Shown piece after piece: positions 1 to 14,445 of a stretch of DNA of 14,445 nucleotides (the stretch's first letter is position 1; every line of letters starts with the position of its first letter). The notes under the pieces were generated by a model. The model saw only the letters and a program-made list of their open reading frames with translations, was not told the origin of the DNA and did no database searches. The stretch lies in contig JBDRLP010000024.1 of NCBI GenBank assembly GCA_043812975.1, positions 1 through 14,445 of the forward strand, in the 5' to 3' direction. Both the position numbers and the translations under genes were made by a program. The stretch comes from Candidatus Iainarchaeum sp. GTDB taxonomy: Archaea; Iainarchaeota; Iainarchaeia; Iainarchaeales; Iainarchaeaceae.

Positions 1-221
1 GATTTGTAAGGCATATCAGCAATAACCATTGCTTTTGGTCTGGCTCTGCAAACAGCTTTTGTATGCAAAAGCATTTCTTCCATTCCAATTTGTTTTGTGC
101 TTTTCAAACCATGAACAACATTAGCAGCTGAATCTCCAATAAGTATTAAATCTACTCCTGCTTTATCAGCTATTGAAGCAGAAGGAAAATCATATGCTGT
201 TAACATTACAATTTTTTTCAA
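1..221 (-). CDS. panB: 3-methyl-2-oxobutanoate hydroxymethyltransferase (ketopantoate hydroxymethyltransferase), N-terminal part; runs off the window edge
   Basis: Not in the ORF track. My translation of the minus strand from TTG at 221 gives MKKIVMLTAYDFPSASIADKAGVDLILIGDSAANVVHGLKSTKQIGMEEMLLHTKAVCRARPKAMVIADMPYK. It contains the PanB motifs MLTAYD, GVDxILxGDS and ADMP. An AAGGT SD-like site lies just upstream. Confidence 0.93.
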   Translation of the reverse strand, partial: MKKIVMLTAYDFPSASIADKAGVDLILIGDSAANVVHGLKSTKQIGMEEMLLHTKAVCRARPKAMVIADMPYK

Positions 222-240
222 AATAATTACCTTAAATTTT

Positions 241-279
241 TAATGTTATAAAAAAGCATTACGAACTAATAATTAAATA
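241..279. promoter_or_regulatory. Divergent panB/ilvE promoter region with archaeal TATA-like boxes
   Basis: TTTATAA on the minus strand (246-252) is about 25 nt upstream of the panB start. TTAAATA on the plus strand (273-279) is 31 nt upstream of the ilvE ATG. An inverted repeat TAATG-N11-CATTA spans 241-261. Confidence 0.5.
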
Positions 280-310
280 GTGTTTGTGATTTGTTTGTAT
301 AAGTGGTTTT

Positions 311-1225
311 ATGGAAGAAACTGAATTTATCTGGATGAACGGGAAAATGGTTCCATGGAAGGACGCTAAAATTCATTTTCTTACTCATGCTTTGCATTAT
401 GGAAGTGCTGTTTTTGAGGGAATTCGGTGTTATAAAACAGATAAAGGTCCTGCTGTATTTCGATTGAAGGATCATTTGGAAAGGCTTTTTTATTCAGCAG
501 ATGTTTTTGGAATGAAAATTCCTTACTCTCAAGAAGAATTGTACAAAGCAACAATTGAAGTTGTCGCAAAAAATAATTTAGAAGAATGTTATATTCGACC
601 ACTTGCGTATTATGGTTATGGACAAATGGGTTTGAACCCAAAAGGAGCTAAGGTTGATGTGGGAATTGCTGCATGGCCATGGGGGTCTTATTTGGGTGAT
701 GAAGGATTAAAGAACGGAATCAGAATGAATATTAGCAAATGGATTAGACCTCCAACAAACATGATGCCCACTAACGCAAAAATTTCCGGGAATTATGTGA
801 ATAGTATTGTTGCAAAGGTTGATTCTGTAAATTCAGGTTTTGAGGAAGCGATTTTGCTGGATCTAAAAGGAAATGTTGCTGAATGCACTGGAGAGAATCT
901 TTTTATTGTAAAAAATAACGAACTTATTGTTCCTCCTACTGAGAACACTTTGAAGGGAATTACTCGGGATAGTATGATGGAAATTGCAAAAGATTTTGGG
1001 ATTACTGTAAAGGAAGAATTTTTCAATCAAGAACAATTACTTAGTGCTGAAGAAGCTTTCCTCACTGGAACTGCTGCCGAGGTTACCCCTATAAGGGAAA
1101 TAAATAACCAGAAAATAGGAGAAGGCAAACTAGGACCGGTTACAAAAAAGATTCAGGAAAAATATTATGAAGTAATCCACGGAAAAGATTCAAAATATGA
1201 AAAGTGGCTGGATTTTGTGAAATAG
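311..1225 (+). CDS. ilvE: Branched-chain amino acid aminotransferase (PLP fold type IV)
   Basis: Motifs HALHYGSAVFEGIR, YIRP, AKISGNY (PLP lysine), ECTGENLF, LKGITRDS and FLTGTAAEVTP. 304 aa. Confidence 0.96.
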   Translation: MEETEFIWMNGKMVPWKDAKIHFLTHALHYGSAVFEGIRCYKTDKGPAVFRLKDHLERLFYSADVFGMKIPYSQEELYKATIEVVAKNNLEECYIRPLAYYGYGQMGLNPKGAKVDVGIAAWPWGSYLGDEGLKNGIRMNISKWIRPPTNMMPTNAKISGNYVNSIVAKVDSVNSGFEEAILLDLKGNVAECTGENLFIVKNNELIVPPTENTLKGITRDSMMEIAKDFGITVKEEFFNQEQLLSAEEAFLTGTAAEVTPIREINNQKIGEGKLGPVTKKIQEKYYEVIHGKDSKYEKWLDFVK

Positions 1226-1774
1226 GTGAGAAACATTTCTGATTACGAAAAACTTTTTGAATTAATGCACCAGAGGCAAAGCATCCGCAAATTCCAGAAA
1301 AAAGAAATTCCAAAAAAGATTATTGAAAAAATTGTTTCTGCAGGAACAACCGCACCTTCTTCTTTTAATTCTCAACCCTGGAAATTTTATGTTATTCAAA
1401 ATGCGGAAAAGAAAAACCAAATCCGGGAACTTTATGAAATGGTTCGTAAAAAGAAAGGTTGGTACAAACAGGATGTTTCTTTTATTGAAAATGCAACTCC
1501 AATAATTGTTACTTGTGAAGATGATGCACATGGAAAAATTATTAGTTGTGGAATGGCAATCCAGAATATGTTTTTAGCTGCTGAATCATTAGGTTTAGGT
1601 TCTTTACCTGCAGGTACCTTAGTAACAGATGAAGAAACTGTTTCCCAAGTAAAAAAAATATGCGAAATTTCTAAAGAAGAAAAAATTATTTTAGGAACTT
1701 TTTTTGGTTATAAGGATGAAACCCCTGAGCGCAAGGAAAGGAAGGATTTGAATTCAATTTTGGAGTTCAAATAA
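1226..1774 (+). CDS. Nitroreductase-family flavoprotein
   Basis: RQSIRKF, APSSFNSQPWKF and GMAIQNMFLAAESLGLGS are nitroreductase signatures. The GTG start immediately follows the ilvE TAG, suggesting co-transcription. Confidence 0.9.
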   Translation: MRNISDYEKLFELMHQRQSIRKFQKKEIPKKIIEKIVSAGTTAPSSFNSQPWKFYVIQNAEKKNQIRELYEMVRKKKGWYKQDVSFIENATPIIVTCEDDAHGKIISCGMAIQNMFLAAESLGLGSLPAGTLVTDEETVSQVKKICEISKEEKIILGTFFGYKDETPERKERKDLNSILEFK

Positions 1775-1777
1775 AAG

Positions 1778-1785
1778 CTTAAATA
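1778..1785 (+). promoter_or_regulatory. TATA box (CTTAAATA) for a leaderless transcript of the MsrQ-like gene
   Basis: 22 nt upstream of ATG 1808, the same spacing seen at several other genes. No SD before the ATG. Confidence 0.55.
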
Positions 1786-1807
1786 ATTCAAAGTACTATT
1801 TTTGTAG

Positions 1808-2515
1808 ATGCCAAAACTATTTGAAGGTGCAAAAAAGAACTGGAAATTTGTTCTATCCTTTCTAGTTATTTCTCTGGTTTTTTGGTTGATTCAGTATGCT
1901 TTCCAAGTGTACGTTCTTGGGATTACTGATGATGGTCAGGCTTTGGTTAGGGCTTCTGCATTTTCAGGAGCGACATTCATAACTCTTTCTTTGCTTTCAA
2001 GTATAATTTTTAAATTTAAACCAACTTTGGCAAAATACTGGACAGTGCGAAGATTGCTTGGAGTAATGGGTTGGTTGTTTATTGCATTGCATTTCAATTT
2101 TGTAATAGATTTTTATTACATGGGAAATCCTGCAGGATTATTTTTTGATTTAAATCCTTTTGCAAATCTAATTATTTTTGGTTTATTCGGATATTTTATT
2201 CTTTTACTATTGACTTTAACCTCAACTGACTGGGCTGTTGGAAAATTAGGGGCAAAGTGGAAACCCTTGCACAGATTGGTTTATTTTTCTTATTGGGCTA
2301 TAGTTACCCACTTCATGCTGATCAATCCGCTTGCATTGATGAACCTTGCGGGATACTTACTATTGCTCCTCACAGGCCTGACTTTACTGGGCGAACTCTA
2401 TTGGTTCATTAAAATAGCTGGGCAAAAAAACTTCAAAACCAAGGCAACAATCGTGGCAATTATTTTGTTTTTACTTTACCTGATTAGTATTTATTTTGGA
2501 TATCTGGTAAATTGA
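1808..2515 (+). CDS. Ferric-reductase-like transmembrane heme-b protein (MsrQ/YedZ family)
   Basis: Multi-TM protein with RRLLG...LH, LTLTS...WKPLHRLVY...H, the YedZ/MsrQ pattern including three conserved His. No msrP in the window, so no gene symbol is given. Confidence 0.82.
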   Translation: MPKLFEGAKKNWKFVLSFLVISLVFWLIQYAFQVYVLGITDDGQALVRASAFSGATFITLSLLSSIIFKFKPTLAKYWTVRRLLGVMGWLFIALHFNFVIDFYYMGNPAGLFFDLNPFANLIIFGLFGYFILLLLTLTSTDWAVGKLGAKWKPLHRLVYFSYWAIVTHFMLINPLALMNLAGYLLLLLTGLTLLGELYWFIKIAGQKNFKTKATIVAIILFLLYLISIYFGYLVN

Positions 2516-2530
2516 TAATTGACAAAAAAT

Positions 2531-2547
2531 CGATAGATATTTAAATT
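2531..2547 (+). promoter_or_regulatory. BRE/TATA promoter of the leader-leuA-ilvBHC-leuB operon
   Basis: CGATAGATA-TTTAAATT, with the TATA-like element at 2540-2547, 20 nt upstream of ATG 2568. This would put the transcription start at or next to the leader ORF ATG. Confidence 0.6.
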
Positions 2548-2567
2548 TCTTCAGCCTATATTATTTC

Positions 2568-2633
2568 ATGAATTCAAGCAATATAAGTAAAGTGGCATTA
2601 ATTCTGTTACTGGTACTTGTATTGCTAGCTTAA
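2568..2633 (+). CDS. Putative Leu/Val/Ile-rich leader (attenuator) peptide, 21 aa MNSSNISKVALILLLVLVLLA
   Basis: ATG AAT TCA AGC AAT ATA AGT AAA GTG GCA TTA ATT CTG TTA CTG GTA CTT GTA TTG CTA GCT TAA: 7 Leu, 3 Val, 2 Ile. It lies between the TATA box and leuA. Too short for the ORF track. Confidence 0.72.
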   Translation: MNSSNISKVALILLLVLVLLA

Positions 2634-2709
2634 ACACCCTGAAAAATTTTTTCGACTTCTGGGGTGTGATATCAAAAAAGATCAGAATTCGTTAGAAAAA
2701 AGGTTTTAA
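2634..2709 (+). promoter_or_regulatory. Structured leader RNA: hairpin ACACCCT...GGGGTGT enclosing a T6 tract, with alternative pairings reaching the leuA SD
   Basis: 2634-2640 pairs with 2661-2667 (6 Watson-Crick + 1 G.U). T6 lies at 2647-2652. Alternatively TTTTTTC (2647-2653) pairs with GAAAAAA (2695-2701) and TTCTG (2657-2661) with CAGAA (2683-2687). SD-like AAGGT at 2700-2704. Pairings were found by eye. Confidence 0.55.
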
Positions 2710-2711
2710 AA

Positions 2712-4265
2712 ATGACAAGAACAATCAAGATTTTCGACACAACCCTTAGAGACGGGGAACAAAGCCCAGGCGCTACCTTAAATCATAATGAAAAAATTCT
2801 GATAGCTAAACAGCTTGAAAGGCTTAATGTGGATATTGTAGAAGCTGGTTTTCCAATTGCTTCAGAGGATGATTTTAAGGCAGTTAATGAGATTGCACAG
2901 GAAATTTCAAAACCAATAGTGTGCGGATTAGCAAGATGTAAAAAAGAAGATATTGATGCTGTTGCAAAGGCGATTGAGCCTGCAAAAAAATCCAGGATTC
3001 ATGTATTCTTAGCAACTTCCCCAATTCACATGAAATACAAATTGAAAATGGAACCTTCACAAGTAATTAAGGAAGCTGAAAAATGGGTTAAGTATGCTAA
3101 AGAATTCACAGAAGATATTGAGTTTTCTCCGGAAGATGCAGGGAGATCAGAACCAGAATTTTTGTATCAAGTTCTTGAAAAAGCAATTGATGCTGGTGCA
3201 ACAACACTGAACATTCCTGATACTGTTGGTTATACTCAGCCACAGGAATATGGTGCAATGATTAAGGGAATAATTGAAAATGTCCCTAATTATTCTGATT
3301 CAATAACTATCAGTGCACACTGCCATGATGATTTGGGATTAAGTGTTGCAAATTCCCTTTCCGGAATAATGAACGGCGTTACACAAGTTGAAGGAACCAT
3401 CAATGGAATTGGTGAAAGAGCAGGAAACACTTCTCTTGAAGAACTAATCATGAACCTTCATGCGCGAGAAGAAGTTTTTGATGCAACAACTAATATTAAT
3501 CTGAAAGAAATTTACAATACAAGCCAGATGGTTTCAAGTTTCACATCATTGCTTGTGCAATCGAATAAAGCGATTGTTGGAAAAAATGCTTTTGCACATG
3601 AAGCAGGAATTCACCAGCATGGTGTTCTTGCAAATAGAGAAGTTTATGAAATAATGAATCCAGAAACAATTGGTAAAGAAACCGAGTTGGTTATCGGAAA
3701 GCACTCCGGAAAAGCAGGGGTTAAAGATTTTCTTGAAAAAAAAGGATTAAATCTTAATGAACAGGAACTGGAAGACATTACAAAAAAAATTAAGGATCTT
3801 GCGGACAAAAAGAAAACAGTTTATCACGAGGACATCATTGCACTTGCTGCTAATCTAAAAAATAAGTTAACTTCTAATCAGGTTTTTGTTAAACTTGAAG
3901 ACATAAAAATCACAACCGGAAATAAGGTTCAGCCAACAGCAGAAGTAACTCTTATTGTTGATGGTGTTTTGAAAAAAAGTACTGGAATTGGCATTGGTCC
4001 TGTTGATGCATCAGCAAAAGCAATTCGTAATGCTGTTGGGGAAGAATTCAAACTCAAGAATTATATTCTCAAAGCAATTACCGGCGGCACTAATGCCTTA
4101 GCAGATGTTTCAATAACTGTTGAGGATAAAAACCACCATGAATTCAGTGCTCAGGCGGTTAATGAGGATATAATCATGGCTTCGGTGGATGCACTCATAA
4201 AAGGTCTAAATAAAGCCTTTTCGTATAAAAAGAGTTCTAAGCTGTTTGGAAAGAAGGGGTTTTAA
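2712..4265 (+). CDS. leuA: 2-isopropylmalate synthase with C-terminal regulatory domain
   Basis: DTTLRDGEQSPG, IHVFLATSPIH, PDTVG, HCHDDLG, GIGERAGN, HEAGIHQHG, and a C-terminal GxGPVDA allosteric domain. 517 aa. Confidence 0.93.
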   Translation: MTRTIKIFDTTLRDGEQSPGATLNHNEKILIAKQLERLNVDIVEAGFPIASEDDFKAVNEIAQEISKPIVCGLARCKKEDIDAVAKAIEPAKKSRIHVFLATSPIHMKYKLKMEPSQVIKEAEKWVKYAKEFTEDIEFSPEDAGRSEPEFLYQVLEKAIDAGATTLNIPDTVGYTQPQEYGAMIKGIIENVPNYSDSITISAHCHDDLGLSVANSLSGIMNGVTQVEGTINGIGERAGNTSLEELIMNLHAREEVFDATTNINLKEIYNTSQMVSSFTSLLVQSNKAIVGKNAFAHEAGIHQHGVLANREVYEIMNPETIGKETELVIGKHSGKAGVKDFLEKKGLNLNEQELEDITKKIKDLADKKKTVYHEDIIALAANLKNKLTSNQVFVKLEDIKITTGNKVQPTAEVTLIVDGVLKKSTGIGIGPVDASAKAIRNAVGEEFKLKNYILKAITGGTNALADVSITVEDKNHHEFSAQAVNEDIIMASVDALIKGLNKAFSYKKSSKLFGKKGF

Positions 4266-5956
4266 TGAAAGGTTCTTTAGCTGTATTGAAAGCATTGAAA
4301 AGAAACAAAGTAGAGGTAATGTTCGGAATTCCCGGAGGCGTGGTTATTCCGTTTTATGATGAAATTTACAAAGATGATGAATTCAGGCACATTCTTGTGA
4401 GGCATGAACAAGCAGGAGCCCATATGGCAGAGGGTTTTGCAAAGGCTTCAGGAAGAACAGGAACCTGCTTAGGAACCTCAGGACCAGGAGCAACCAATTT
4501 AGTTACTGGAATTGCTGATGCATTCATGGATTCAGTTCCGATAGTTGCTTTTGGAGGGCAAGTAATAACTCCATTAATAGGTAAAGATGCTTTTCAGGAA
4601 GCAGATTTAATGGGAATAACAACCCCAATAACAAAACACAATTTCCAAATTACTGATCCGAATGACATTGACACGATTATTGATAATGCTTATTATATTG
4701 CCAATACAAACAGACCAGGCCCGGTTTACGTTGAATTGCCAAAGGATGTTCAGGTTGAAAATGTTACTAAAAAAAACGAATTGAAATTAAAAGGTTATAA
4801 AATTTTGAAAGGTTTTGATTCAGAAGCCGTGAAGAAAGCAGCAAAAATGTTGCTTGAAGCTGAAAGACCGGTAATGCTTATTGGTGGCGGTGCTTTATCA
4901 GGGAATTGTTCAAAAGAAATCAAAGAAATAGCTGAAACTTGTATGATTCCTGTTGCAAGTACTTCGCAGGGAAAAGGAGTTTTTGATGAAAGGCATCCGC
5001 TTTCATTAGGAATGACTGGAATGCATGGTCAGCCTCCTGCGGTTTATGCAATTCAAAAGTGTGATGTGCTTTTTAACATTGGAACAAGATTTGATGACAG
5101 AGTTACAGGAAACCTTTCCGGTTTTGCTCCTGAAGCAAAAGTAATTAACATTGAAATTGATGCAAGTGAATTTAACAAAAACAGGAAATCTGATATAGGA
5201 ATTCTTGGAAATGCAAAAGAAGTTTTACAGGAAATGGTTGGTATTGTTAGACAAATGCAGTGGAAAAATGAAGTTTGGAAAGATAAATTAAAACAATTAC
5301 AGAAAGAATATGGTGAAGAAATTAATATTGATTCTACTCCAATTGACCCAAGAAAACTCATGTATGAAATTCAACAGGTTTTAACTCCTGATACAATTGT
5401 TACAACAGGAGTCGGAGAACATCAAATGGATGTTGCTCACTTCATAAAGTTTTCAAAGCCAAGAAAGTTCCTTACTTCCGGAGGTTTAGGAACAATGGGT
5501 TTTGGTTTTCCTTCAGCAATAGGGGCCAAGGTTTCTTCTCCTGAAAATGAAGTAATTAATGTTGATGGTGATGGTTCTTTTGCAATGACTTTACAGGAAT
5601 TAGCCACTGCTAAAGTGAACAACATTAAAGTTGTGAATGTGATTATGAACAATGGTTATCTTGGGATGGTAAGAAGCTGGAATGACATGTTTTATGGCGG
5701 AAGAAGAAGCCAGGTGTATTTAGGAAAGATTCCTGATTTTACTAAAGTTGCTGAAGCTTATTCATTGAAAGGAATCCGCGTTGATAAGCCAGGTGAAATT
5801 GGCCCTGCTTTGAAAGAAGCATTGAAGAATGATGAAACAACTGTTGTTGAGGTTCACACAAAATCTGATGCAATTGTACTGCCGATTGTTCCTGCTGGTG
5901 CTGCAAACCACGAAATGATTGGGGACAGTATCCCTAAGGAGTTCTTTGACAAGTGA
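4265..5956 (+). CDS. ilvB: Acetolactate (acetohydroxyacid) synthase large subunit
   Basis: FGIPGG, RHEQAGAHMAEG, TSGPGATN, DAFQE, RFDDRVTG, SGGLGTMG and the TPP motif GDGSF...NNGYLGMV. TAATG overlap with leuA. Confidence 0.95.
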   Translation: MKGSLAVLKALKRNKVEVMFGIPGGVVIPFYDEIYKDDEFRHILVRHEQAGAHMAEGFAKASGRTGTCLGTSGPGATNLVTGIADAFMDSVPIVAFGGQVITPLIGKDAFQEADLMGITTPITKHNFQITDPNDIDTIIDNAYYIANTNRPGPVYVELPKDVQVENVTKKNELKLKGYKILKGFDSEAVKKAAKMLLEAERPVMLIGGGALSGNCSKEIKEIAETCMIPVASTSQGKGVFDERHPLSLGMTGMHGQPPAVYAIQKCDVLFNIGTRFDDRVTGNLSGFAPEAKVINIEIDASEFNKNRKSDIGILGNAKEVLQEMVGIVRQMQWKNEVWKDKLKQLQKEYGEEINIDSTPIDPRKLMYEIQQVLTPDTIVTTGVGEHQMDVAHFIKFSKPRKFLTSGGLGTMGFGFPSAIGAKVSSPENEVINVDGDGSFAMTLQELATAKVNNIKVVNVIMNNGYLGMVRSWNDMFYGGRRSQVYLGKIPDFTKVAEAYSLKGIRVDKPGEIGPALKEALKNDETTVVEVHTKSDAIVLPIVPAGAANHEMIGDSIPKEFFDK

Positions 5957-6429
5957 TTTTTATGGAAAAATTTATTATAAAATTGATTGTTGACAACACA
6001 AAAGGAGTAATGGCCAGAATTGCTACTTTGCTTTCAAGAAAAGGTTACAACATAACATCTATTGCTGTTGGTTCTCATCTTGAGGAAGGAGAAGCAAGTA
6101 TTATGCTTACTATTTGGGGCAATGAAACAGAAGTTGAACTTGCAAAAAATATGCTTGAAAAACTCATTAATGTAATTGATATTCATAAGTATCATGAAAG
6201 TGAAGTGATTGAGAAAGAACATTGTTTGTTGAAAATTAAGAAAACTGAGAGTCCGGTTGCAAAACTGAATAACAAAAATGTTGTTGTTTTAAGAGAGAAT
6301 GAAGGAATTATGGTTCTTGAGTATATTGATCATCCAGATAAGGTTGAAGCGCTTATTACAACTGCTGTAAAAGAATTAGATGTTCTTGATATTTCAAGAT
6401 CAGGAACAAATGCAATGTCAATAAAATGA
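5953..6429 (+). CDS. ilvH: Acetolactate synthase small (regulatory, ACT) subunit
   Basis: ACT motif DNTKGVMARIATLLSRKGYNITSIAVG...LEKLINVI and C-terminal SRSG. GTGA overlap with ilvB (alternative ATG at 5962). Confidence 0.9.
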   Translation: MIFMEKFIIKLIVDNTKGVMARIATLLSRKGYNITSIAVGSHLEEGEASIMLTIWGNETEVELAKNMLEKLINVIDIHKYHESEVIEKEHCLLKIKKTESPVAKLNNKNVVVLRENEGIMVLEYIDHPDKVEALITTAVKELDVLDISRSGTNAMSIK

Positions 6430-6463
6430 TTATGCTTGGATTTTCATTTAGGGGGTAGGTAAG

Positions 6464-7450
6464 ATGAAGATATATAGAGAAGAAGATGCGGATTTGAAAA
6501 ATTTAGAAGGAAAAACCATTGCAGTTATTGGTTATGGTGCACAGGGAAAAGCACAGGCACAGTGCATGAAAGATTCTGGATTGAATGTTATTGTTGGATT
6601 AAGAAAAGATAGTTCATCAGTTGAAAAAGCAAAAGAATATGGTTTTGAAGTTTTTATAACCTCTGAGGCAGCTGAGAAAGCAGATATAATTCATTTTTTG
6701 ATTCCTGATGAAAAACAAGCAGAAATTTATACAAAAGATATAGCCCCTCACATGAAAGGAGGGAAAACACTTTCATTTTCACACGGATTCAATATTTGTT
6801 ATAAGTTCATCAAACCTGCTGAAGGAATTGATGTTATAATGGTTGCTCCAAAAAGTCCAGGTACTGAGGAAAGAAAAAGATACTTGGAAGGATTTGGAGT
6901 TCCTGGTTTGATTGCGATAAAACAGGATGCTTCAGGAAACGCAAAACAAACAGCACTTACAATGGCAAAAGCAATTGGACTTACGAGAGCTGGTGTTTTG
7001 GAATGTACTTTTGAACAGGAAACTTATGAGGACTTGTTCGGAGAACAAGCAGTTCTTTGTGGTGGCACGGCCGAGCTGATAAAGGCAGGTTTTGAAACTT
7101 TAGTAGAGAGAGGTTATCCTCCTGAAATGGCTTACTTTGAATGCTTGCACGAGCTGAAACTCATTACTGATTTGATTTATGAGGGTGGTTTGGAACACAT
7201 GTGGAAAGTTGTTTCTAATACTGCTGAGTATGGTGGAAGAACCAGAGGAAAAGCAATTATTGGCCCGCATGTAAAAGAAAGAATGAGTGAACTCCTTGAT
7301 GATATTGAATCAGGAAAATTTGCAAATGAATGGATTACTGAAAGCAAGTCCGGTGGAAACAATTTCAATAAACTAAGAGAAGAACAGGACGCTCATGAAA
7401 TAGAAAAAGTCGGCAAAGAAATCCGTGCGTTGTTCAAGAAGAAAGAGTGA
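6464..7450 (+). CDS. ilvC: Ketol-acid reductoisomerase (short, class I)
   Basis: IAVIGYGAQG, FSHGFNI, MVAPKSPG, EDLFGEQAVLCGG, AYFECLHELKLI, SNTAEYG. SD-like GGGGGTAGGT upstream. Confidence 0.97.
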   Translation: MKIYREEDADLKNLEGKTIAVIGYGAQGKAQAQCMKDSGLNVIVGLRKDSSSVEKAKEYGFEVFITSEAAEKADIIHFLIPDEKQAEIYTKDIAPHMKGGKTLSFSHGFNICYKFIKPAEGIDVIMVAPKSPGTEERKRYLEGFGVPGLIAIKQDASGNAKQTALTMAKAIGLTRAGVLECTFEQETYEDLFGEQAVLCGGTAELIKAGFETLVERGYPPEMAYFECLHELKLITDLIYEGGLEHMWKVVSNTAEYGGRTRGKAIIGPHVKERMSELLDDIESGKFANEWITESKSGGNNFNKLREEQDAHEIEKVGKEIRALFKKKE

Positions 7451-8523
7451 AGCTAATGAACAAAAAAATCGCAGTTTTATCCGGAGATGGTATAGGTCCT
7501 GAAATAACAGAACAGGCAGTACTGGCTCTGAAAAAGATTGCTGAAAAATTTAAACATGAGTTTGAATTTAAGGAAGCCGATATTGGATATGTTGCTTATG
7601 AAAAGCACGGTCATTCACTTCCAAAGGAAACAATAGAAATTTGCAAGAATTCAGATGCTGTTTTGCTAGGGGCAATTGGTGATCCAAGAGCTGAAAAGCT
7701 TCCTCCGCAGGACCAACCAGAAAGAGCTGCATTGCTTCCTCTTAGAAAAATATTTGAATTGTATGCAAACCTTCGCCCAGCAAAAGTATTTCCTGCTCTT
7801 GTTGATGCTTCTCCATTGAAAAAAGAAATTATCGGAGAAGGACTTGACATTATTACTATTCGTGAATTAACCGGCGGAATTTATTTTGGAAAAAAAGATG
7901 TTGCTGAGGATAATTCCTGGAGAAGTGATGAATTAAAATATTCCCGTTTTGAAATTGAAAGAATTGCTAGAAAAGCTTTTGAAATTGCTCGAACAAGACC
8001 AAGAAAAAAAGTTACTTCAATAGATAAGGCAAATGTTTTGTACTCTTCTGTTCTTTGGAGAGAAGTTGTTGAGGAAGTTCATAAGGATTATTCTGATATT
8101 GAATTAGAACATTATTATGTTGATAATGCTGCAATGCAACTGATAAAGAACCCGCATCAATTTGATGTTATTGTTACCTCAAATCTGTTTGGAGATATTC
8201 TTTCTGATGAATCAAGTATGATTACTGGTTCTTTGGGAATGCTTCCAAGTGCTTCATTAGGAGAAGGTTCTTTTGGATTATACGAACCAATTCACGGAAG
8301 TGCTCCAAAGTACACTGGCATGGATGTTGCTAATCCAATTGCAACTATTTTGAGTGCTGCAATGCTTCTCAAGTACTCTTTTGGCCTGGATAAAGAAGCC
8401 AAAGCAATTGAGGATGCGGTTGAAAAAACAATTGAAAAGTACAGAACAAAAGACATTTTTGTTGAAGGCACAACCCTTATTGGTACTAAAGAAATGGGTA
8501 AGAGAATAACTGAAAACATCTAA
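7447..8523 (+). CDS. leuB: 3-isopropylmalate dehydrogenase
   Basis: GDGIGPE, NLRP, RELTGGIYFG, DKANVL, NLFGDILSD, EPIHGSAP. GTGA overlap with ilvC (alternative ATG at 7456). Confidence 0.95.
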   Translation: MKLMNKKIAVLSGDGIGPEITEQAVLALKKIAEKFKHEFEFKEADIGYVAYEKHGHSLPKETIEICKNSDAVLLGAIGDPRAEKLPPQDQPERAALLPLRKIFELYANLRPAKVFPALVDASPLKKEIIGEGLDIITIRELTGGIYFGKKDVAEDNSWRSDELKYSRFEIERIARKAFEIARTRPRKKVTSIDKANVLYSSVLWREVVEEVHKDYSDIELEHYYVDNAAMQLIKNPHQFDVIVTSNLFGDILSDESSMITGSLGMLPSASLGEGSFGLYEPIHGSAPKYTGMDVANPIATILSAAMLLKYSFGLDKEAKAIEDAVEKTIEKYRTKDIFVEGTTLIGTKEMGKRITENI

Positions 8524-8526
8524 AGA

Positions 8527-8534
8527 TTTAAATA
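8527..8534 (+). promoter_or_regulatory. TATA box TTTAAATA for the leaderless 72-aa ORF
   Basis: 21 nt upstream of ATG 8556. Confidence 0.55.
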
Positions 8535-8555
8535 TTATAGAATTCTTCTAAATTT

Positions 8556-8774
8556 ATGAAGCCTAGAAAACCCTATAAGGGTCCTGAGAGAAGAGAAGCT
8601 CAGGAACCCAGAAGAAAAAAAGAAGAAACTACTTTTTTTCGAAGAGGGTTTAAAGGAGTAAAAAAATACTTCAAATGGCTTTATGGTGAAGATGATATTC
8701 TCACAGGAACTGACCGTAGAAAAAGAACCCTTCCCAAAAGAGAATCTGATTGGTCAAAACAAAGATCTGAATAG
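8556..8774 (+). CDS. Small Arg/Lys-rich hypothetical protein (72 aa)
   Basis: Has its own TATA box and a downstream terminator-like hairpin, and fills an otherwise empty gap. Contains YKGPERR and TGTDRR. Confidence 0.65.
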   Translation: MKPRKPYKGPERREAQEPRRKKEETTFFRRGFKGVKKYFKWLYGEDDILTGTDRRKRTLPKRESDWSKQRSE

Positions 8775-8810
8775 TTATAAAAAATTATCAATAATTTGAT
8801 TATATCAGAT

Positions 8811-8840
8811 GCCCCTTCTGAGGGGTTTTTCTATTTTTTT
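8811..8840 (+). terminator. Hairpin + T-tract terminator between convergent genes
   Basis: GCCCCT-TCTG-AGGGGT followed by TTTTCTATTTTTTT. Confidence 0.6.
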
Positions 8841-9709
8841 AATTTTTTTTCAACTTCTTTTGAATTTCCATCAAAATTCTCTTCAAGATAAATAATATTT
8901 TTGTAAAATTTCATTTTTGGAATTTCTTCAAATGCTTCCTTGTACTGGTGTTCTAATGTTCCTTTTTCTGAAATGAAATAATCAGCAAAATCCTTTAGTT
9001 TGAATTTCTTTTCATTATTATCTTCAGAATGAATAACACACGTGTCATAGTTTCCTTTTTCTTTCAACCATTTCGGAGGATCCTTATCCCCAATAGAACC
9101 TATTACCAGATTCTTATTTTCCAATAAATCATCAACCAATTCTTTTTTCAGTTTTGTTCCTTTTTTTAATTCAGTTTCTTTTTTTATTTTTATTATTACA
9201 TGTTTTTTTCCTTTACTTATTATTTCAAACCCTGATTCTAGAAAAACATTAAGCATTTTTCTTTCAAGTTCCTTATTAGTTTCATCAATCAAAATAGGGC
9301 AATCGTACTTTTCAAACAATTCAAAGTTTATGCAGAATCCTTCTCTTCCTGTTTTGCTTGTTGGACCATCAACAATAATCAAATCATATTTTTCTCCCAG
9401 ATTTTTTTTCAATGCCTCTATGTCATACCAGTAGTATCCTTTGTACTCTTTTATCGGAGCATAAATGTATCCGACTCCTAAGTATTTTCCCACGTATTTT
9501 GTATCATGTTCTACAGAATCAACTTTGTATAAGTATGAGAGTATTTGTGAACTTTTTCCAGAACCAATTTCAAGTATTTTGCTTCCTGCTGGAAGATTTT
9601 TCTTTACCCAGTCAAAAAAAGTGTAATGCAAAACGCATTTTTTTCGATTATCTTTCTGGGCTTCCTCAATTTCTTTTACTTCTTTAATGTACTTTTCTTC
9701 ATTATTCAT
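8831..9709 (-). CDS. Class I SAM-dependent methyltransferase-like protein with an extra C-terminal region
   Basis: ILEIGSGKSS (motif I), VDSVEHD and YDLIIVDGP in the N-terminal ~175 aa, then a Lys-rich linker and an unassigned domain. Confidence 0.65.
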   Translation of the reverse strand: MNNEEKYIKEVKEIEEAQKDNRKKCVLHYTFFDWVKKNLPAGSKILEIGSGKSSQILSYLYKVDSVEHDTKYVGKYLGVGYIYAPIKEYKGYYWYDIEALKKNLGEKYDLIIVDGPTSKTGREGFCINFELFEKYDCPILIDETNKELERKMLNVFLESGFEIISKGKKHVIIKIKKETELKKGTKLKKELVDDLLENKNLVIGSIGDKDPPKWLKEKGNYDTCVIHSEDNNEKKFKLKDFADYFISEKGTLEHQYKEAFEEIPKMKFYKNIIYLEENFDGNSKEVEKKLKK

Positions 9710-9870
9710 TTTTTATCTTCCACTGTAAATTCTGCTTCTATTTCATTAGGATCTTTTTTTGGCCCGTATGCTGGTTTTTTTGTTATCCAGCTCCAAATGA
9801 ATTTTGTGATTACTACTGGAATCAGAATAATAAGTAGAATAATATCAAACAATTTTGCCCAAAAACTCAT
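9706..9870 (-). CDS. Small single-pass membrane protein (54 aa), not in the ORF track
   Basis: MSFWAKLFDIILLIILIPVVITKFIWSWITKKPAYGPKKDPNEIEAEFTVEDKK. ATGA overlap with the methyltransferase-like gene. TATA box 22 nt upstream. Confidence 0.72.
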   Translation of the reverse strand: MSFWAKLFDIILLIILIPVVITKFIWSWITKKPAYGPKKDPNEIEAEFTVEDKK

Positions 9871-9892
9871 TTTAGAATTCTTTATGAAAATC

Positions 9893-9953
9893 TTTATATA
9901 ACCTTTAAATCCATATATTTTGAATATTTTTCCAATTCAAAAAAATTTAAATA
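9893..9953. promoter_or_regulatory. Divergent TATA boxes
   Basis: TTATATAAA on minus (9893-9901) is 22 nt before ATG 9870. TTTAAATA on plus (9946-9953) is 22 nt before ATG 9976. Confidence 0.6.
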
Positions 9954-9975
9954 TTAGAAAGCCCTTATAAAATCA

Positions 9976-10863
9976 ATGAATTTCTTGAAAATAGCGCTGA
10001 TTTTTTCCTTATTTGTTTTGGTTAGTGGTTGCCTTGGGGAAATGGGGGAAACCCGTTCTCTGAGTAATGATTCTGATTATTATGGCGATTCTATTGGCGG
10101 AGGTTTTGCAGAGGAAGCAAAATCAGCTCCTAGTTCTGCAATGGATTTTTCACAAAAAGTTGCTCAGGGAGAAAGAGTAGTAATAAAGAGTGGTTCTGCT
10201 TCTGTTGAGGTAGTACAGGGAACTCTTGAACAAAAATTAGTGGAATTAAAACAATTAATTGCAAACAATGGCGGAACAGTTGAAAATATCAGGTATTCAT
10301 CCACTGAAAGCTCTAAGAGTTATAATATCGAGGTTAAGGTTCCTCCCACAAGCTTTGATTCTATTTCTTCCGGATTGCAAAACATTGGAACAATGAAAAG
10401 CCTTTCCACTAATTCTGATGATGTTACTTATGAGTACATTGATTTGGAGGCTCAAATTAAAAATTTAGAAGTTCAAAAACAAAGGTTGCTTGAGATTTAT
10501 ACTAAGGCAGAAACAATTGAAAGTATTGTGGAACTCGAATCTGAAATTAATCGTGTTCAAACCCGGATTGATTCCTCTACTTCGCGTAAGAATTTTATTG
10601 AAAGACAGGCAGCAAGAGCAACTTTGAACATTAACATTTTCGAGGAAGCCCCTATTATTGATAAATCATTAATTCTTCCTCTGAACGATGCGGTTAATAC
10701 TTTGATTGCTGCACTTGGAGTTGGAATAATAATAATTTCCGGTTTGATTGGTTTTGCAATTCCATTTGTAATAGTTCTGCTGATTATAATTGGAATCATA
10801 AAAGTTCTGAGAAAATATCTTTTCAAGAATTTGAAGATTCCTTACTTTGACAAGAAAAAGTGA
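9976..10863 (+). CDS. DUF4349-like membrane/lipoprotein
   Basis: Signal peptide ending LVSGC. The pattern VIKSGSASVEV...GGTVE...VKVP...SDDVTYEYIDLEAQIKNLE...RLLEIY...VELESEINRVQ matches DUF4349 as I recall it. C-terminal TM hairpin. Confidence 0.8.
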   Translation: MNFLKIALIFSLFVLVSGCLGEMGETRSLSNDSDYYGDSIGGGFAEEAKSAPSSAMDFSQKVAQGERVVIKSGSASVEVVQGTLEQKLVELKQLIANNGGTVENIRYSSTESSKSYNIEVKVPPTSFDSISSGLQNIGTMKSLSTNSDDVTYEYIDLEAQIKNLEVQKQRLLEIYTKAETIESIVELESEINRVQTRIDSSTSRKNFIERQAARATLNINIFEEAPIIDKSLILPLNDAVNTLIAALGVGIIIISGLIGFAIPFVIVLLIIIGIIKVLRKYLFKNLKIPYFDKKK

Positions 10864-11903
10864 TTTATATCAAACCATTGATTTGTGCAGTAGTACTTTT
10901 AATAATTTTTTTCAGTGGTTGCCCCAAAACAATACCAGAACCAACTGAACTTCCGGATGATTTTGAAATTACTTATTCTTCGGGTGCAATGCACCTGGAA
11001 TGGGGTGGTTTTGAATTCAAAGCTGCTGCTTCCGGCAAAGCTTACTTGATTAATACTATGGGTATGGAAATGGAAGTTAGAAAAGATTTTACTGTTACTT
11101 ATGAAGAATTATTAGAAATTTATAAAGCTGCAGTTGTAAATGATTTCTTTTCCCTTAATGATTCATATGAAGATCCTTTTGTAATGGATGGAGGGTGGAG
11201 TAAAATAAGCATTTATGCTAATGGTTCAAGGAAAAATGTTTCTATTTCTAATTATCAAAATGATCAGTTTGATGCAGTTAGTAGTAAAGTGGCAGGGTTA
11301 GTAACTTCAAAACTTGGTACTGATGCTTTTTTTCCTAATTTTTTTGATTATTGTGATGAACAAAGAATTGAATGTATAGAAAGACCAATGATTTACAAGT
11401 GCCCAGATGCAAAGTGTGACATTTCTGATCCTGTGTGTGATGAATGGGCTGAGTATTGTAGTTGGGATTATGGTGAAATACCAACACCTACCGGGGAACT
11501 AACTCCTGTGTATTGTGATAAGTTACAGAACCGAGAAGAGTGTATTGATTATTGCACTTGGAATGATTGTTCACAGGAATTATGTGATACTTTGGTTTTT
11601 GAGGCTCCTGAATGCACTGAATGCAGTCCTGGTTGTTGTGAGCATTGTACTGATCTTAGTTATTGTACATCAATAATTGGGTGTGATGTAGCATGGATTT
11701 TGCCAATGGATGGTGCTTGGGAGTTTGGCGGATGCAGTAATATTGATTTGTGCATGGGTTCTGAAGAAGCCTGTGCTGGCTTGTCTTCTAATTATCAGGG
11801 ATATGAAGTAGCTGCAGCAACAGAAGAGAATTCGGATATTGCAGGGATATACCAGAGCATATCTGCGCTTCTTGAATCAGCTTATTTGGATAATTGTGAA
11901 TAG
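10860..11903 (+). CDS. Secreted/lipid-anchored acidic protein with a Cys-rich C-terminal half
   Basis: Lipobox-like FFSGC. 22 Cys in the C-terminal ~185 aa. GTGA overlap with the upstream gene. Confidence 0.8.
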   Translation: MIYIKPLICAVVLLIIFFSGCPKTIPEPTELPDDFEITYSSGAMHLEWGGFEFKAAASGKAYLINTMGMEMEVRKDFTVTYEELLEIYKAAVVNDFFSLNDSYEDPFVMDGGWSKISIYANGSRKNVSISNYQNDQFDAVSSKVAGLVTSKLGTDAFFPNFFDYCDEQRIECIERPMIYKCPDAKCDISDPVCDEWAEYCSWDYGEIPTPTGELTPVYCDKLQNREECIDYCTWNDCSQELCDTLVFEAPECTECSPGCCEHCTDLSYCTSIIGCDVAWILPMDGAWEFGGCSNIDLCMGSEEACAGLSSNYQGYEVAAATEENSDIAGIYQSISALLESAYLDNCE

Positions 11904-11910
11904 TTTTTGA

Positions 11911-12387
11911 TTAATGCCCTTGAAGTTTTGCGCATTCATCAAGGTATAAGCCAAAGAAACTACTGAAGCTATTCATCAATTTTCCTGTTTTTACCTCTCC
12001 AAAAAGTTCCATAAAGTTAGAATACACTTGAAGTCTCATCGTACGTTGAATTTCAGGAGTAAATTGCATGAATTTTTTATTGTGTATTGATTTAATCCCT
12101 TCAACAATCACATTGCGCATATGTGGATTTCCATTTGATACTTCTGCATAATCAATTGCCCTTTTAACTGCTTTTTCCAGAAATGCTTCATAGTCAGAGT
12201 AATATATTGGCAAATTTCCTCTTTCTGTAAGTCTGATTACTTTGCCCCTGTCAGTATCTTTAACAGAATTCAGATGTTCCTTAACAGACTCACGAACTCT
12301 TTTCCTGTGCCTAGATAAGCGTGTAATTATTTTATGATCCAAAAAACCTGTTATTGCATTCCTAGCTTTGAATAATTGGTGCTTCAT
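11911..12387 (-). CDS. Hypothetical protein (158 aa, basic N-terminus)
   Basis: ORF fills the gap. TTAAATA on minus (12410-12416) is 22 nt upstream of the ATG. No motif recognised. Confidence 0.7.
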   Translation of the reverse strand: MKHQLFKARNAITGFLDHKIITRLSRHRKRVRESVKEHLNSVKDTDRGKVIRLTERGNLPIYYSDYEAFLEKAVKRAIDYAEVSNGNPHMRNVIVEGIKSIHNKKFMQFTPEIQRTMRLQVYSNFMELFGEVKTGKLMNSFSSFFGLYLDECAKLQGH

Positions 12388-12484
12388 ACTAAGAACAAAC
12401 TTAGCATACTATTTAACAGTTATGTGTGGGTTTCTCACTTCCACTTTAAAAGCAATTATTCCCTTATTTGTTAGGAGATTTTAA

Positions 12485-13030
12485 ATGGGTAATTTTTATT
12501 TCGATATTGAAACCACTGGTCTTGATGCTAAAAAGAGCAAGATTATTACTATTCAGTATCAGGAACTGGATAGGCATACTGGTGAAGCTATTAGTGATTT
12601 GATTATTCTAAAAGAATGGGAAAGTTCTGAAAGAGATATTATTGAGAAGTTCATTAAGGATTCAAAAATTGATTCAAATTACGCCTTTGATTTTATTCCA
12701 ACCGGTTACAACCTTGGTTTTGAACACAATTTTTTAAGAGAAAGAACAGCAAAGCACAGTCTTAATCCATTAGATATTCTTTCAAAACCTTTCATTGATT
12801 TAAGATCAATCGGTATTTTGATGAATAATGGAGAATTCAAAGGAAGTGGGTTGGATAAAATAACCAATAAGGAAACAGACGGAAGCCAGATTCCTGTTTG
12901 GTATGAGAACAAAGAATACTCTCGCATCATTCAGTACATTGAAAACGAAACCAAGTCTTTCATAGAATTCAATGCTTGGTTGTACAAGGAAATGCCTTCT
13001 CTTTTAGAGAAATTCAAAAGCAAATTATAG
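12485..13030 (+). CDS. RNase H-like / DEDD 3'-5' exonuclease-family protein (YprB/PolB-exo-like)
   Basis: ExoI FDIETTG, ExoII-like GYNLGFE, ExoIII-like YIENE, and the G..IP.WY segment. SD AGGAG at 12473-12477. TATA-like TTTAAAA at 12445-12451. Confidence 0.8.
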   Translation: MGNFYFDIETTGLDAKKSKIITIQYQELDRHTGEAISDLIILKEWESSERDIIEKFIKDSKIDSNYAFDFIPTGYNLGFEHNFLRERTAKHSLNPLDILSKPFIDLRSIGILMNNGEFKGSGLDKITNKETDGSQIPVWYENKEYSRIIQYIENETKSFIEFNAWLYKEMPSLLEKFKSKL

Positions 13031-13033
13031 TTT

Positions 13034-14320: not shown

Positions 14321-14382
14321 GACAAAATAGGGGTTATTCTAAGATAAAAACCTGTTGTTTTCCTTAGCATTATCTCTAACTT

Positions 14383-14445
14383 TTAACCATAGAACATTAC
14401 TTCATTTTCTCTTGTTTCATTTACGCGTATAAGCTTTGCATAAAC
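14383..14445 (-). CDS. Possible 3' end of a gene entering from the right edge
   Basis: Open minus frame ...VYAKLIRVNETRENEVMFYG-stop. Too short to identify. Confidence 0.3.
   Translation of the reverse strand, partial: VYAKLIRVNETRENEVMFYG

Follow-up and report, generated by a model that had tools for sequence, protein, structure and literature searches.

The leuA locus and its leader RNA

The stretch analysed here comprises 14,445 nucleotides of Candidatus Iainarchaeum sp. (assembly GCA_043812975.1, contig JBDRLP010000024.1, positions 1 to 14,445 of the forward strand), which we call the window; it is one contig (C24) of a 1.24 Mb genome that is 94% complete and has a G+C content of 35.1%. 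The host is archaeal, since at the same rRNA locus the archaeal small-subunit (SSU) model scored 639.7 bits against 466.8 bits for the bacterial model. It is uncultured, and none of the public sequencing runs was listed as containing this DNA. An intergenic stretch of 196 bases separates leuA (2712-4265) from an MsrQ-like gene (1808-2515), and it contains the element under study, a leader with a short Leu- and Val-rich reading frame and a hairpin directly after its stop codon. On the forward strand leuA is followed by ilvB (4265-5956), ilvN (5953-6429), ilvC (6464-7450), and leuB (7447-8523), each of the five identified by its best NCBIfam model above the curated cut-off; we take leuA-ilvB-ilvN-ilvC-leuB (2712-8523, forward strand) as the regulated genes.

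An original prediction, made from the letters of the window, had placed mutually exclusive RNA structures in the region 2630-2711. Judged by comparison with relatives, a conserved leader RNA some 130 bases long (2568-2694) stands in front of the leuA operon, and this region makes up its 3′ half. The strings on which the prediction was built are all in the window, including ACACCCT (2634-2640), GGGGTGT (2661-2667), GATATCAAAAAAG (2668-2680), the T6 run in the hairpin loop (2647-2652), TTAAACACC (2630-2638), GGTTTTAA (2702-2709), AATTCTG (2600-2606), and CAGAATT (2683-2689). Upstream of them there is a TATA-box-like sequence, ATATTTAAAT (2537-2546, forward strand), whose TTTAAA spans 28 to 23 bases upstream of the ATG of the leader, counted from its A; the leader mRNA therefore probably begins at or next to this ATG, that is, it would be leaderless. 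Read by eye, 11 of the 13 leaders belonging to the window's family have a like element 27-29 bases before the ATG, and in G002 and G003 one stands at 35 bases (G, C, L, and f numbers are our own handles for genomes, contigs, loci, and families). The leader frame (2568-2633, forward strand) has 21 codons, seven of them Leu, three Val, and two Ile, and reads MNSSNISKVALILLLVLVLLA before the TAA stop at 2631-2633. Similar frames occur in relatives, and we infer that the frame is translated.

Our first LeuA search covered 61 related genomes, from which the upstream DNA of 21 loci was taken. At 19 of these 21 leuA loci we found a TATA-like box and a small frame ending in a Leu/Val run (typically ...VLVLLA), with a GC-rich hairpin directly after the leader stop; at the two loci without a leader (G026 and G057), ilvE is directly upstream. 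Extended to the whole order (196 genomes, 48 of them with a LeuA match at E 1e-60 or better), the search added 31 further upstream stretches, and the final set comprises 48 leaders (48 genomes of the order), of which 46 precede leuA-type genes and two precede ilvB. Left out of the counts on these 48 leaders are G026 and G057, G087 (in which no ATG-started leader was found), contig C46 of G064 (for which the automatic procedure picked the wrong open reading frame, or ORF, and which was read by eye), and L177 (a metagenome locus with a long ORF).

Searched for with a covariance model, the post-stop module gave matches in 19 of the 151 genomes sampled from the order and in 18 of 151 in the phylum sample, and was single-copy in 18 of the 19 and 17 of the 18 matching genomes, the exception being G006 with a weak second match; in the host genome the element's model has one match only. 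Among 80 loci retrieved from metagenome contigs with LeuA, most of them 47-53% identical, the model matches a single one (L177, E 0.004). Searched against Rfam, the window gave no match at the gathering score, including to Leu_leader (RF00512), and at a permissive threshold the best match in 2400-2800 was to an unrelated family (E 0.63). We also scanned genome contigs with a pattern made of the hairpin loop and the downstream motif described below; this returned at least 120 stretches and was too unspecific to be used, and the three archaeal-titled and seven Bacteroidota matches that were inspected are all unrelated. The latter (L041, L050, L055, L057, L060, L104, and L113) fall in a protein-coding stretch that is conserved in many Bacteroidota genomes and in which the pattern always spans 51 bases.

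The post-stop hairpin A

Hairpin A (2634-2667, forward strand) starts at the first base after the TAA and pairs 2634-2640 with 2661-2667 around a 20-base loop, as had been predicted. Stability calculations gave a mixed picture. The predicted energy of A in the window is between −8.9 kcal/mol (seven pairs) and −10.4 kcal/mol (the minimum-energy version), and the hairpin alone is borderline against shuffled sequences (z −2.40, equalled by 2 of 200 shuffles; z −1.87 when the segment is cut slightly differently). The region 2630-2711 as a whole folds no better than its shuffles (−13.6 kcal/mol, z −0.58, 48 of 200 as good). In the 48 leaders, z for the 45 post-stop bases averages −2.03, is negative in 47, and falls below −2 in 23, and the predicted post-stop hairpin begins between 3 bases before and 6 bases after the stop in all 48.

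Comparison with relatives is what carries the case for A. MAFFT followed by RNAalifold on 15 sequences recovered only the second helix (helix B, below) and misaligned the 3′ arm of A, so covariance models were built from single sequences and the sequences realigned. In the resulting alignment of 16 sequences, made with a model from the window alone, six of the seven pairs of A are changed on both sides and 96.4% of the cells are paired; a second alignment (17 sequences) gave five compensatory pairs out of seven, with 96.6% of the cells paired. Among the cells of the latter, 14 are G-U or U-G wobbles and four are unpaired, and this frequency of wobbles, together with the rarity of non-pairs, fits an RNA helix on the sense strand. 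The compensatory changes can also be read from the raw sequences: the arms ACACCC/GGGTGT of the window correspond to GCGCTCC/GGAGTGC in G006, GCACTTCC/GGAAGTGC in G042, and ATACCTCC/GGGGGGTAT in G027. By these comparisons, A is a real and conserved part of the leader RNA.

A long helix inside the reading frame

The strongest helix of the leader was absent from the original prediction. This helix, H0 (2577-2626, forward strand), appears in the minimum-energy fold with an outer stem pairing 2577-2589 with 2614-2626 and an inner stem pairing 2591-2597 with 2605-2611; its outer stem joins codons 4-8 to the Leu/Val codons. The ORF of the window alone folds at −22.4 kcal/mol (z −5.9), and none of 200 shuffles was as stable. 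For the whole leader (2569-2714) z is −4.73, mostly owed to H0. Folded separately, each of 17 ORFs yields a long hairpin of the H0 kind (mean z −2.05, below −2 in seven). In the alignment of 17 sequences, which was fitted to the model, nine of the 13 outer-stem pairs show compensatory changes and 85.8% of the cells are paired.

Pairing in H0 would explain two peculiarities of the frame. The N-terminal codons (...S/G-N...) are conserved at the nucleotide level, and the frame includes codons that are not the preferred ones: it has two CTG and one CTA, which account for 10% and 6% of Leu codons in long ORFs, and it lacks GTT, whose share of Val codons is 57%.

Leader composition and the downstream genes

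Across the leaders compared, the composition of the leader peptide follows the genes that would be regulated. Leaders rich in both Leu and Val precede leuA-ilvB-ilvN-ilvC(-ilvD-leuC), as in the window and in G096. A nearly pure Leu leader stands before a lone short leuA in family f11 (for example, in G165). Before ilvB-ilvN alone there are Val/Ala/Leu leaders, MFSAMPSKVLLPVAVLVVLVVALVA in G064 (contig C49) and MFEKSTIRFYVALLVAVVAVLAA in G078, followed by the same post-stop module.

The host genome contains a second leader of this kind for another pathway. On the minus strand of contig C52 of the host (G000), a 30-codon frame, MNSITFTQNESVLARVKSAFGFYFYFWFFK, ends in AFGFYFYFWFFK (L292:4212-4304); it has a TATA-like box upstream, a hairpin beginning 2 bases past its stop, and then A6GGAU6, and it precedes genes for chorismate mutase/prephenate dehydratase (pheA), a split transketolase, and DAHP synthase (L292:73-4132). 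A comparable arrangement surfaced in G006 as the weak second match of the leuA-leader model: there, on contig C25 (L176:1418-1600), a frame ending GSYFYYFFW stands upstream of a pheA-type gene, with a GC hairpin immediately after the frame. A screen of the host genome for TATA-preceded short ORFs of biased composition gave 37 candidates, and of the four inspected only the leuA and pheA leaders match the operon downstream. The other two were set aside: the Ile/Thr-rich frame MAITITIIINVTIA at C34:15054 (forward strand), TATA-preceded as well, is not followed by a gene on its own strand and probably arose by chance, and the frame at C27:48237 has an unrelated gene downstream. The way in which composition tracks the pathway, the aromatic leader, and the ilvB variants together make it very unlikely that the element is merely a hydrophobic peptide, that it terminates the upstream gene, or that it is a copy of a mobile hairpin.

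Several of these loci have features worth recording on their own account. The first 10 bases of the leader in the window (2568-2577) and of the aromatic leader (L292:4295-4304, minus strand) are identical (ATGAATTCAA). In the ilvB-type loci (L281:265-411 and L289, both G064 C49; L286:272-403, G078) hairpin A, the loop motif, and the downstream motif are all present. The f11 loci (L288 in G165; L264-L279) have poly-Leu leaders before a solitary short LeuA of about 400 amino acids that is without the C-terminal part, and their post-stop hairpin lies between A and U runs, has another U6-U9 run after it, and looks like a terminator. On contig C46 of G064 (L280, L291) a Leu-rich frame precedes a short leuA and leuS (leucyl-tRNA ligase), and its stop lies inside an 11-pair hairpin, as read by eye.

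Helix B and the downstream motif

The second structure that had been predicted, helix B, would pair the loop of A with a motif further downstream. Its 5′ strand (2651-2661, forward strand) is the conserved 3′ half of the loop (TTCGACTTCTG, with the consensus TTCGRCTTCTG in the alignments), and its 3′ strand (2683-2694, forward strand) is a motif of invariant or nearly invariant columns, CAGAATTCGTTA in the window and CAGAAGTCNTTA in relatives. Between A and this motif there is an A-rich linker (2668-2682, forward strand) whose A run is kept in relatives; the motif follows A by 14-16 bases, and the length from stop to motif, counted by hand, is 46-50 bases in 15 sequences.

The complementarity on which B was originally proposed exists in the window (2647-2653 with 2695-2701, 2654-2656 with 2691-2693, and 2657-2661 with 2683-2687). 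What is both conserved and complementary, however, is a core of 2654-2661 with 2683-2690 in one continuous register, from G2654-C2690 through G2661-C2683, and not the register first drawn, whose bulge at 2688-2690 uses letters specific to the window. In the window this core contains a C2656/U2688 mismatch; nearly all aligned rows have G in place of T2688. Pairing of the core stands at 88.6%, compared with 36-56% when the partner is slid by 1-3 columns. Changes within it run from A-U to G-U in seven sequences and from C-G to U-G in three, the outermost C-G pair is not maintained (unpaired in 10 of 17), and the two ilvB-type leaders (G064 and G078) have A at the position of C2656 with no restoring change in the partner. 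Two further elements of the predicted B did not survive the comparison: its outer extensions, of U6 with GAAAAAA and of the stop region with the leuA Shine-Dalgarno (SD) sequence, use letters specific to the window, at which relatives differ. The complementarity of AATTCTG, within the regulatory codons, to CAGAATT is likewise present in the window but rests on letters that differ in relatives. The predicted energies in the window are −5.3 kcal/mol for B in its conserved register, −6.3 kcal/mol for B as first drawn, and −7.7 kcal/mol with the SD extension; with 2630-2643 blocked, the best fold has −8.7 kcal/mol.

Another pairing of the downstream motif, helix C, joins it to the 5′ end of the mRNA (GAATTC 2570-2575 with 2685-2690 in the minimum-energy fold of the window). 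We did not adopt it: 71.5% of it is paired and its covariation is weak (equalled in 26-46 of 500 shuffles), five of the 17 rows were not anchored at the true 5′ end, and the aromatic leader of the host opens with the same first 10 bases, yet has no partner for helix C.

Overlap of A and B and the position of the ribosome

The description of A and B as mutually exclusive is not supported, since in the window A and the core of B share a single base. B can be lengthened at the expense of the 3′ arm of A by 0-5 pairs (mean 1.9 in 15 sequences), and by one wobble pair in the window; the extension reaches at least two pairs in 8 of the 15 sequences and is nil in four.

The ribosome geometry that was proposed is borne out. 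The first base of A directly follows the stop, so the 5′ arm of A must be held by a ribosome whose A site contains UAA, and a ribosome stalled on the earlier Leu/Val codons leaves this arm free. Assuming a ribosome footprint of −15 to +12, we folded the leaders with a nested model, in which A and B compete by construction; in the window the probabilities were 0.97 for A and 0.05 for B when free, and that of B rose to 0.64 with the stop footprint blocked. Averaged over 16 sequences, they were 0.57 for A and 0.34 for B without a ribosome, 0 and 0.60 with the stop footprint blocked, and 0.52 and 0.39 with the ribosome stalled seven codons before the stop. Without any constraint, the minimum-energy fold is a B-type helix in 5 of the 13 members of the window's family.

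Candidate read-outs: start-site masking, U runs, and termination

No classical bacterial terminator had been expected, and the region 2400-2900 indeed contains no terminator-like site. The window has a U6 run in the loop of A (2647-2652, forward strand), which is not conserved, and after the hairpin only a U4 run (2704-2707). In the window's family, a run of U4 or longer lies within 4 bases of the hairpin in three of 13 leaders, the window not being among them for the sequence after A, and U5 or more occurs within 24 bases after the hairpin in two of 13. Other families differ: U4 or more follows within 4 bases in six of nine f21 leaders, and U5 or more within 24 bases in 12 of 18 f11 leaders, which makes termination a plausible output somewhere in the order. 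The proposal that U6, once exposed, is used for oligo-U or FttA termination fared poorly, because at least five U lie inside the hairpin in only 3 of the 13 family leaders. U6 is also transcribed before the 3′ arm of A, so A would not yet have formed with the polymerase on U6. The host genome does encode a homologue of FttA/aCPSF1.

Hiding of the leuA SD sequence, the other proposed output, was examined with duplex and accessibility predictions on 25 sequences. The likely SD of leuA (AGGT, 2701-2704) lies in an A6-GG-U4-A5 stretch (2696-2711, forward strand), and AGGT or GGTG stands 7-11 bases before the start codon in most relatives, as read by eye. The stop region and 5′ arm of A pair with their own leuA start at −5.52 kcal/mol, against −5.57 kcal/mol with the starts of other genomes and −5.66 kcal/mol for shuffled arms (permutation p 0.55); in the window this duplex has only −3.8 kcal/mol. 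The predicted accessibility of the leuA start (−14 to +3) was unmoved by the position of the ribosome, at 0.51 free, 0.51 with the ribosome at the stop, and 0.52 and 0.49 with it stalled seven and four codons before (0.70, 0.67, 0.70, and 0.70 for the window in the same order). The spacer from the module to the start codon varies from 74 to 191 bases, and the module also occurs before ilvB. The A-run, G(G), U-run motif (A6GGU4, window 2696-2707) is found again 3′ of the post-stop hairpin of many relatives and of the aromatic leader; it also serves as the SD region of leuA within the window's family. Around the leader stop, we found no conserved slippery site and no conserved frame extended past the stop, the open post-stop frames of the window and of G014 differing in phase by eye.

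A proposed ribosome-gated leader and its alternatives

The leader probably lets this small-genome archaeon gauge its amino-acid supply with its ribosomes, as the pairing of leader composition and downstream genes suggests. In the model that we prefer, a ribosome that reaches the UAA would keep the 5′ arm of A in its mRNA channel and so block A; the loop and 3′ arm would then pair with the downstream motif to give B, which in about half of the relatives could be lengthened by 2-5 pairs at the cost of A. A ribosome delayed on the Leu/Val codons would leave A free to fold. In classical attenuators, too, a hairpin starts just after the leader stop, and by analogy with them A would stand for the hungry state with the operon on, and B without A for the fed state with the operon off. 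The read-out would be taken on the transcript itself, by factor-dependent termination (FttA/aCPSF1) or by cleavage and decay, and not at the ribosome-binding site of leuA. We put the probability that a ribosome-gated choice between A and B is the signal, with a read-out on the transcript, at roughly 0.5.

Several results weigh against this model. The covariation check on the B core found compensatory changes in none of its seven pairs, and 189 of 500 column shuffles were as good, so its arms could be conserved for other reasons. B is weak in the window (−5.3 or −6.3 kcal/mol, compared with −8.9 to −10.4 kcal/mol for A), carries the C/U mismatch, and is not followed by a U tract. The U runs after the hairpin in f21 and f11 give it the look of a terminator there, in which case the hairpin would have the opposite sign. 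On the side of method, the alignments of H0 and A were fitted to the model structure, which favours these helices, and the folding model is nested, at equilibrium, and silent on timing. The four sequences in which B does not extend into A at all speak against a switch, and with a core overlap of one base and extensions of 0-5 pairs the two helices could coexist in a pseudoknot. Such an H-type pseudoknot, with A as stem 1 and the loop-motif pairing as stem 2, might itself be the functional unit: a compact, mechanically stable fold abutting the stop, which a terminating ribosome would unwind and a stalled one would leave intact, and whose effect could be to delay the ribosome at the last Leu codons, or to protect or mark the transcript. 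The 5′ strand of the B core lies wholly in the loop of A, abuts its 3′ arm, and shares 0-1 base with it; by general pseudoknot stereochemistry the loops would be long enough (about 12 bases before stem 2 and 14-16 A-rich bases after stem 1); and the narrow range of the stop-to-motif length and the A-rich linkers would suit a pseudoknot equally well. The inability of B to extend in 4 of 15 relatives points the same way, and the actinobacterial LEU element before leuA has likewise been read as a leader ORF with a pseudoknot (PMC1262725). Against a pseudoknot, B shows no covariation, and its extension by two or more pairs in 8 of 15 sequences exceeds that with permuted flanks (mean 1.93 versus 1.51, with a p of 0.007 that is overstated because the sequences are related), which suggests competition between A and B. 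We regard the pseudoknot as a serious contender that is nonetheless rather unlikely to be the answer.

The remaining explanations are less probable than a pseudoknot. One would turn the post-stop hairpin into an off element, acting as a terminator or a processing signal unless a ribosome positioned on the last Leu codons or at the stop keeps it open, with B and the downstream motif serving another purpose such as protein binding. The U runs of f21 and f11 fit this, as does the A6GGAU6 of the host's aromatic leader; the Leu run abuts stop and hairpin in 48 of 48 leaders, and some f21 genomes keep the downstream motif without a complement in the loop (by eye). We think it unlikely, as the window and 10 of 13 family members have no run of U4 or longer after A, and as a ribosome stalled on the first hungry codons, 8-10 before the stop, falls short of the hairpin, so that the off fold would be favoured by starvation, a response of the wrong sign, barring some special timing. 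That the loss of A exposes U6 (2647-2652) to oligo-U or FttA-dependent termination is less probable still: U6 is there, an FttA/aCPSF1 homologue is encoded, and archaeal polymerases stop at oligo-U without a hairpin, but several family leaders have runs of only 2-3 U in the hairpin, and U6, made before the 3′ arm, lies in the loop of A and is unpaired in both states. Much on a par with this, and if anything a shade less credible, is the translational version, in which B and the pairing of 2630-2638 with GGTTTTAA would hide the leuA SD once A is prevented. The complementarity exists in the window and adds about −1.4 kcal/mol (from −6.3 to −7.7), in three f21 genomes (G042, G149, and G191) the 5′ arm of A is strongly complementary to the leuA start (about −10 kcal/mol), and mycobacterial leaderless Cys leaders are reported to act by unmasking a ribosome-binding site (10.1101/834739); the equality of own-pair, cross-pair, and shuffled energies, the constant accessibility, the variable spacer, and the use of the same module before ilvB all stand against it. 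Finally, we give almost no credence to the view that nothing is regulated here, the frame encoding a hydrophobic peptide or arising by chance and A being the terminator of the upstream gene or a copy of a mobile GC-rich hairpin. The peptide does resemble a short hydrophobic helix; but comparisons already largely refute this view, because the element's covariance model matches the host genome only once, the element travels with leuA or ilvB behind differing upstream genes (MsrQ-like here, ilvE in G149 and G191), covariation in the RNA ties the N-terminal codons to the Leu/Val codons, the composition shifts with the pathway up to the aromatic leader before pheA, and a TATA-like box separates the hairpin from the upstream gene.

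Relation to known systems

Leader-peptide control of amino-acid operons is a textbook bacterial mechanism, which needs coupled transcription and translation together with hairpin-dependent terminators; archaea couple the two processes as well, but terminate differently. With the classical enterobacterial attenuators (leu, trp, his, and ilv; RF00512) the leader described here shares an upstream frame rich in cognate codons, a post-stop hairpin whose folding would depend on the position of the ribosome, a second helix on a neighbouring strand, and the occurrence of matching leaders at several operons. It differs from them in being archaeal, with a TATA-type promoter and a leader mRNA that is probably leaderless, in lacking both a GC hairpin with a U tract in the window and a match in Rfam, in having its regulatory codons in the 3′ arm of the in-frame helix H0 rather than paired with a post-stop segment, and in the overlap of only 0-5 bases between the two later helices, which could form a pseudoknot. 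H-type pseudoknots near decoding sites offer another likeness, namely a GC-rich hairpin whose loop is complementary to downstream sequence, A-rich linkers, and a fold set against the path of the ribosome; unlike them, the leader has no conserved slippery site or extended frame, and its loop-motif pairing is putative.

Two bacterial systems come closer in particular respects. The actinobacterial LEU element lies upstream of leuA and combines a candidate frame with a run of Leu codons and a conserved pseudoknot or alternative hairpin with the lack of an obvious terminator; its authors favoured a protein-binding site (Seliverstov et al., 2005; PMC1262725). In the LEU element the base stem is formed by the Leu codons and the leuA SD, whereas in the leader described here the partner of the Leu/Val codons is the 5′ part of the frame, and pairing with the SD is unsupported. 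The polycysteine leaderless short ORFs of mycobacteria (Canestrari et al.; 10.1101/834739) are a first cistron on which stalling at cognate codons remodels the mRNA, at several loci for one amino acid; they unmask a ribosome-binding site, whereas here no masking of the leuA start is predicted and the spacer is variable.

Our full-text literature search found no paper on leader-peptide attenuation in an archaeon; a passage in a paper on the Haloferax small proteome mentions leader peptides by analogy only (PMC10117724). It is a possibility, which we hold tentatively and consider somewhat apt to fail, that the order uses the ribosome as an amino-acid gauge through leaderless leaders in at least two pathways (Leu/Val and aromatic), with a hairpin or pseudoknot read by FttA-type termination or cleavage and not by an intrinsic terminator. 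If true, leader-peptide attenuation would be described here for the first time in Archaea, and the way in which it is coupled to gene expression would be new. With its compensatory helices, its stop codon set against a hairpin, and a leader composition that tracks the pathway, the element is a concrete, mutable object for asking how an archaeal cell turns the position of a ribosome into a decision on expression. The picture from which we started is changed in two ways: the strongest helix lies within the reading frame, and masking of the ribosome-binding site is unlikely.

Other sequences in the window and the host genome

Beyond the operon, in the part of the window from 8831 to 14320, six open frames (8831-9709 on the minus strand, 9976-10863, 10860-11903, 11911-12387 on the minus strand, 12485-13030, and 13034-14320 on the minus strand) gave no NCBIfam match at E 0.001. 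Elsewhere in the host genome, the family model matches the FttA/aCPSF1-type gene (G000 contig C28:1464-4862; loci L293 and L294) in two pieces, between which there is about 1.4 kb of in-frame sequence, all within one open frame of 1142 codons; this stretch could be an intein or an inserted domain.

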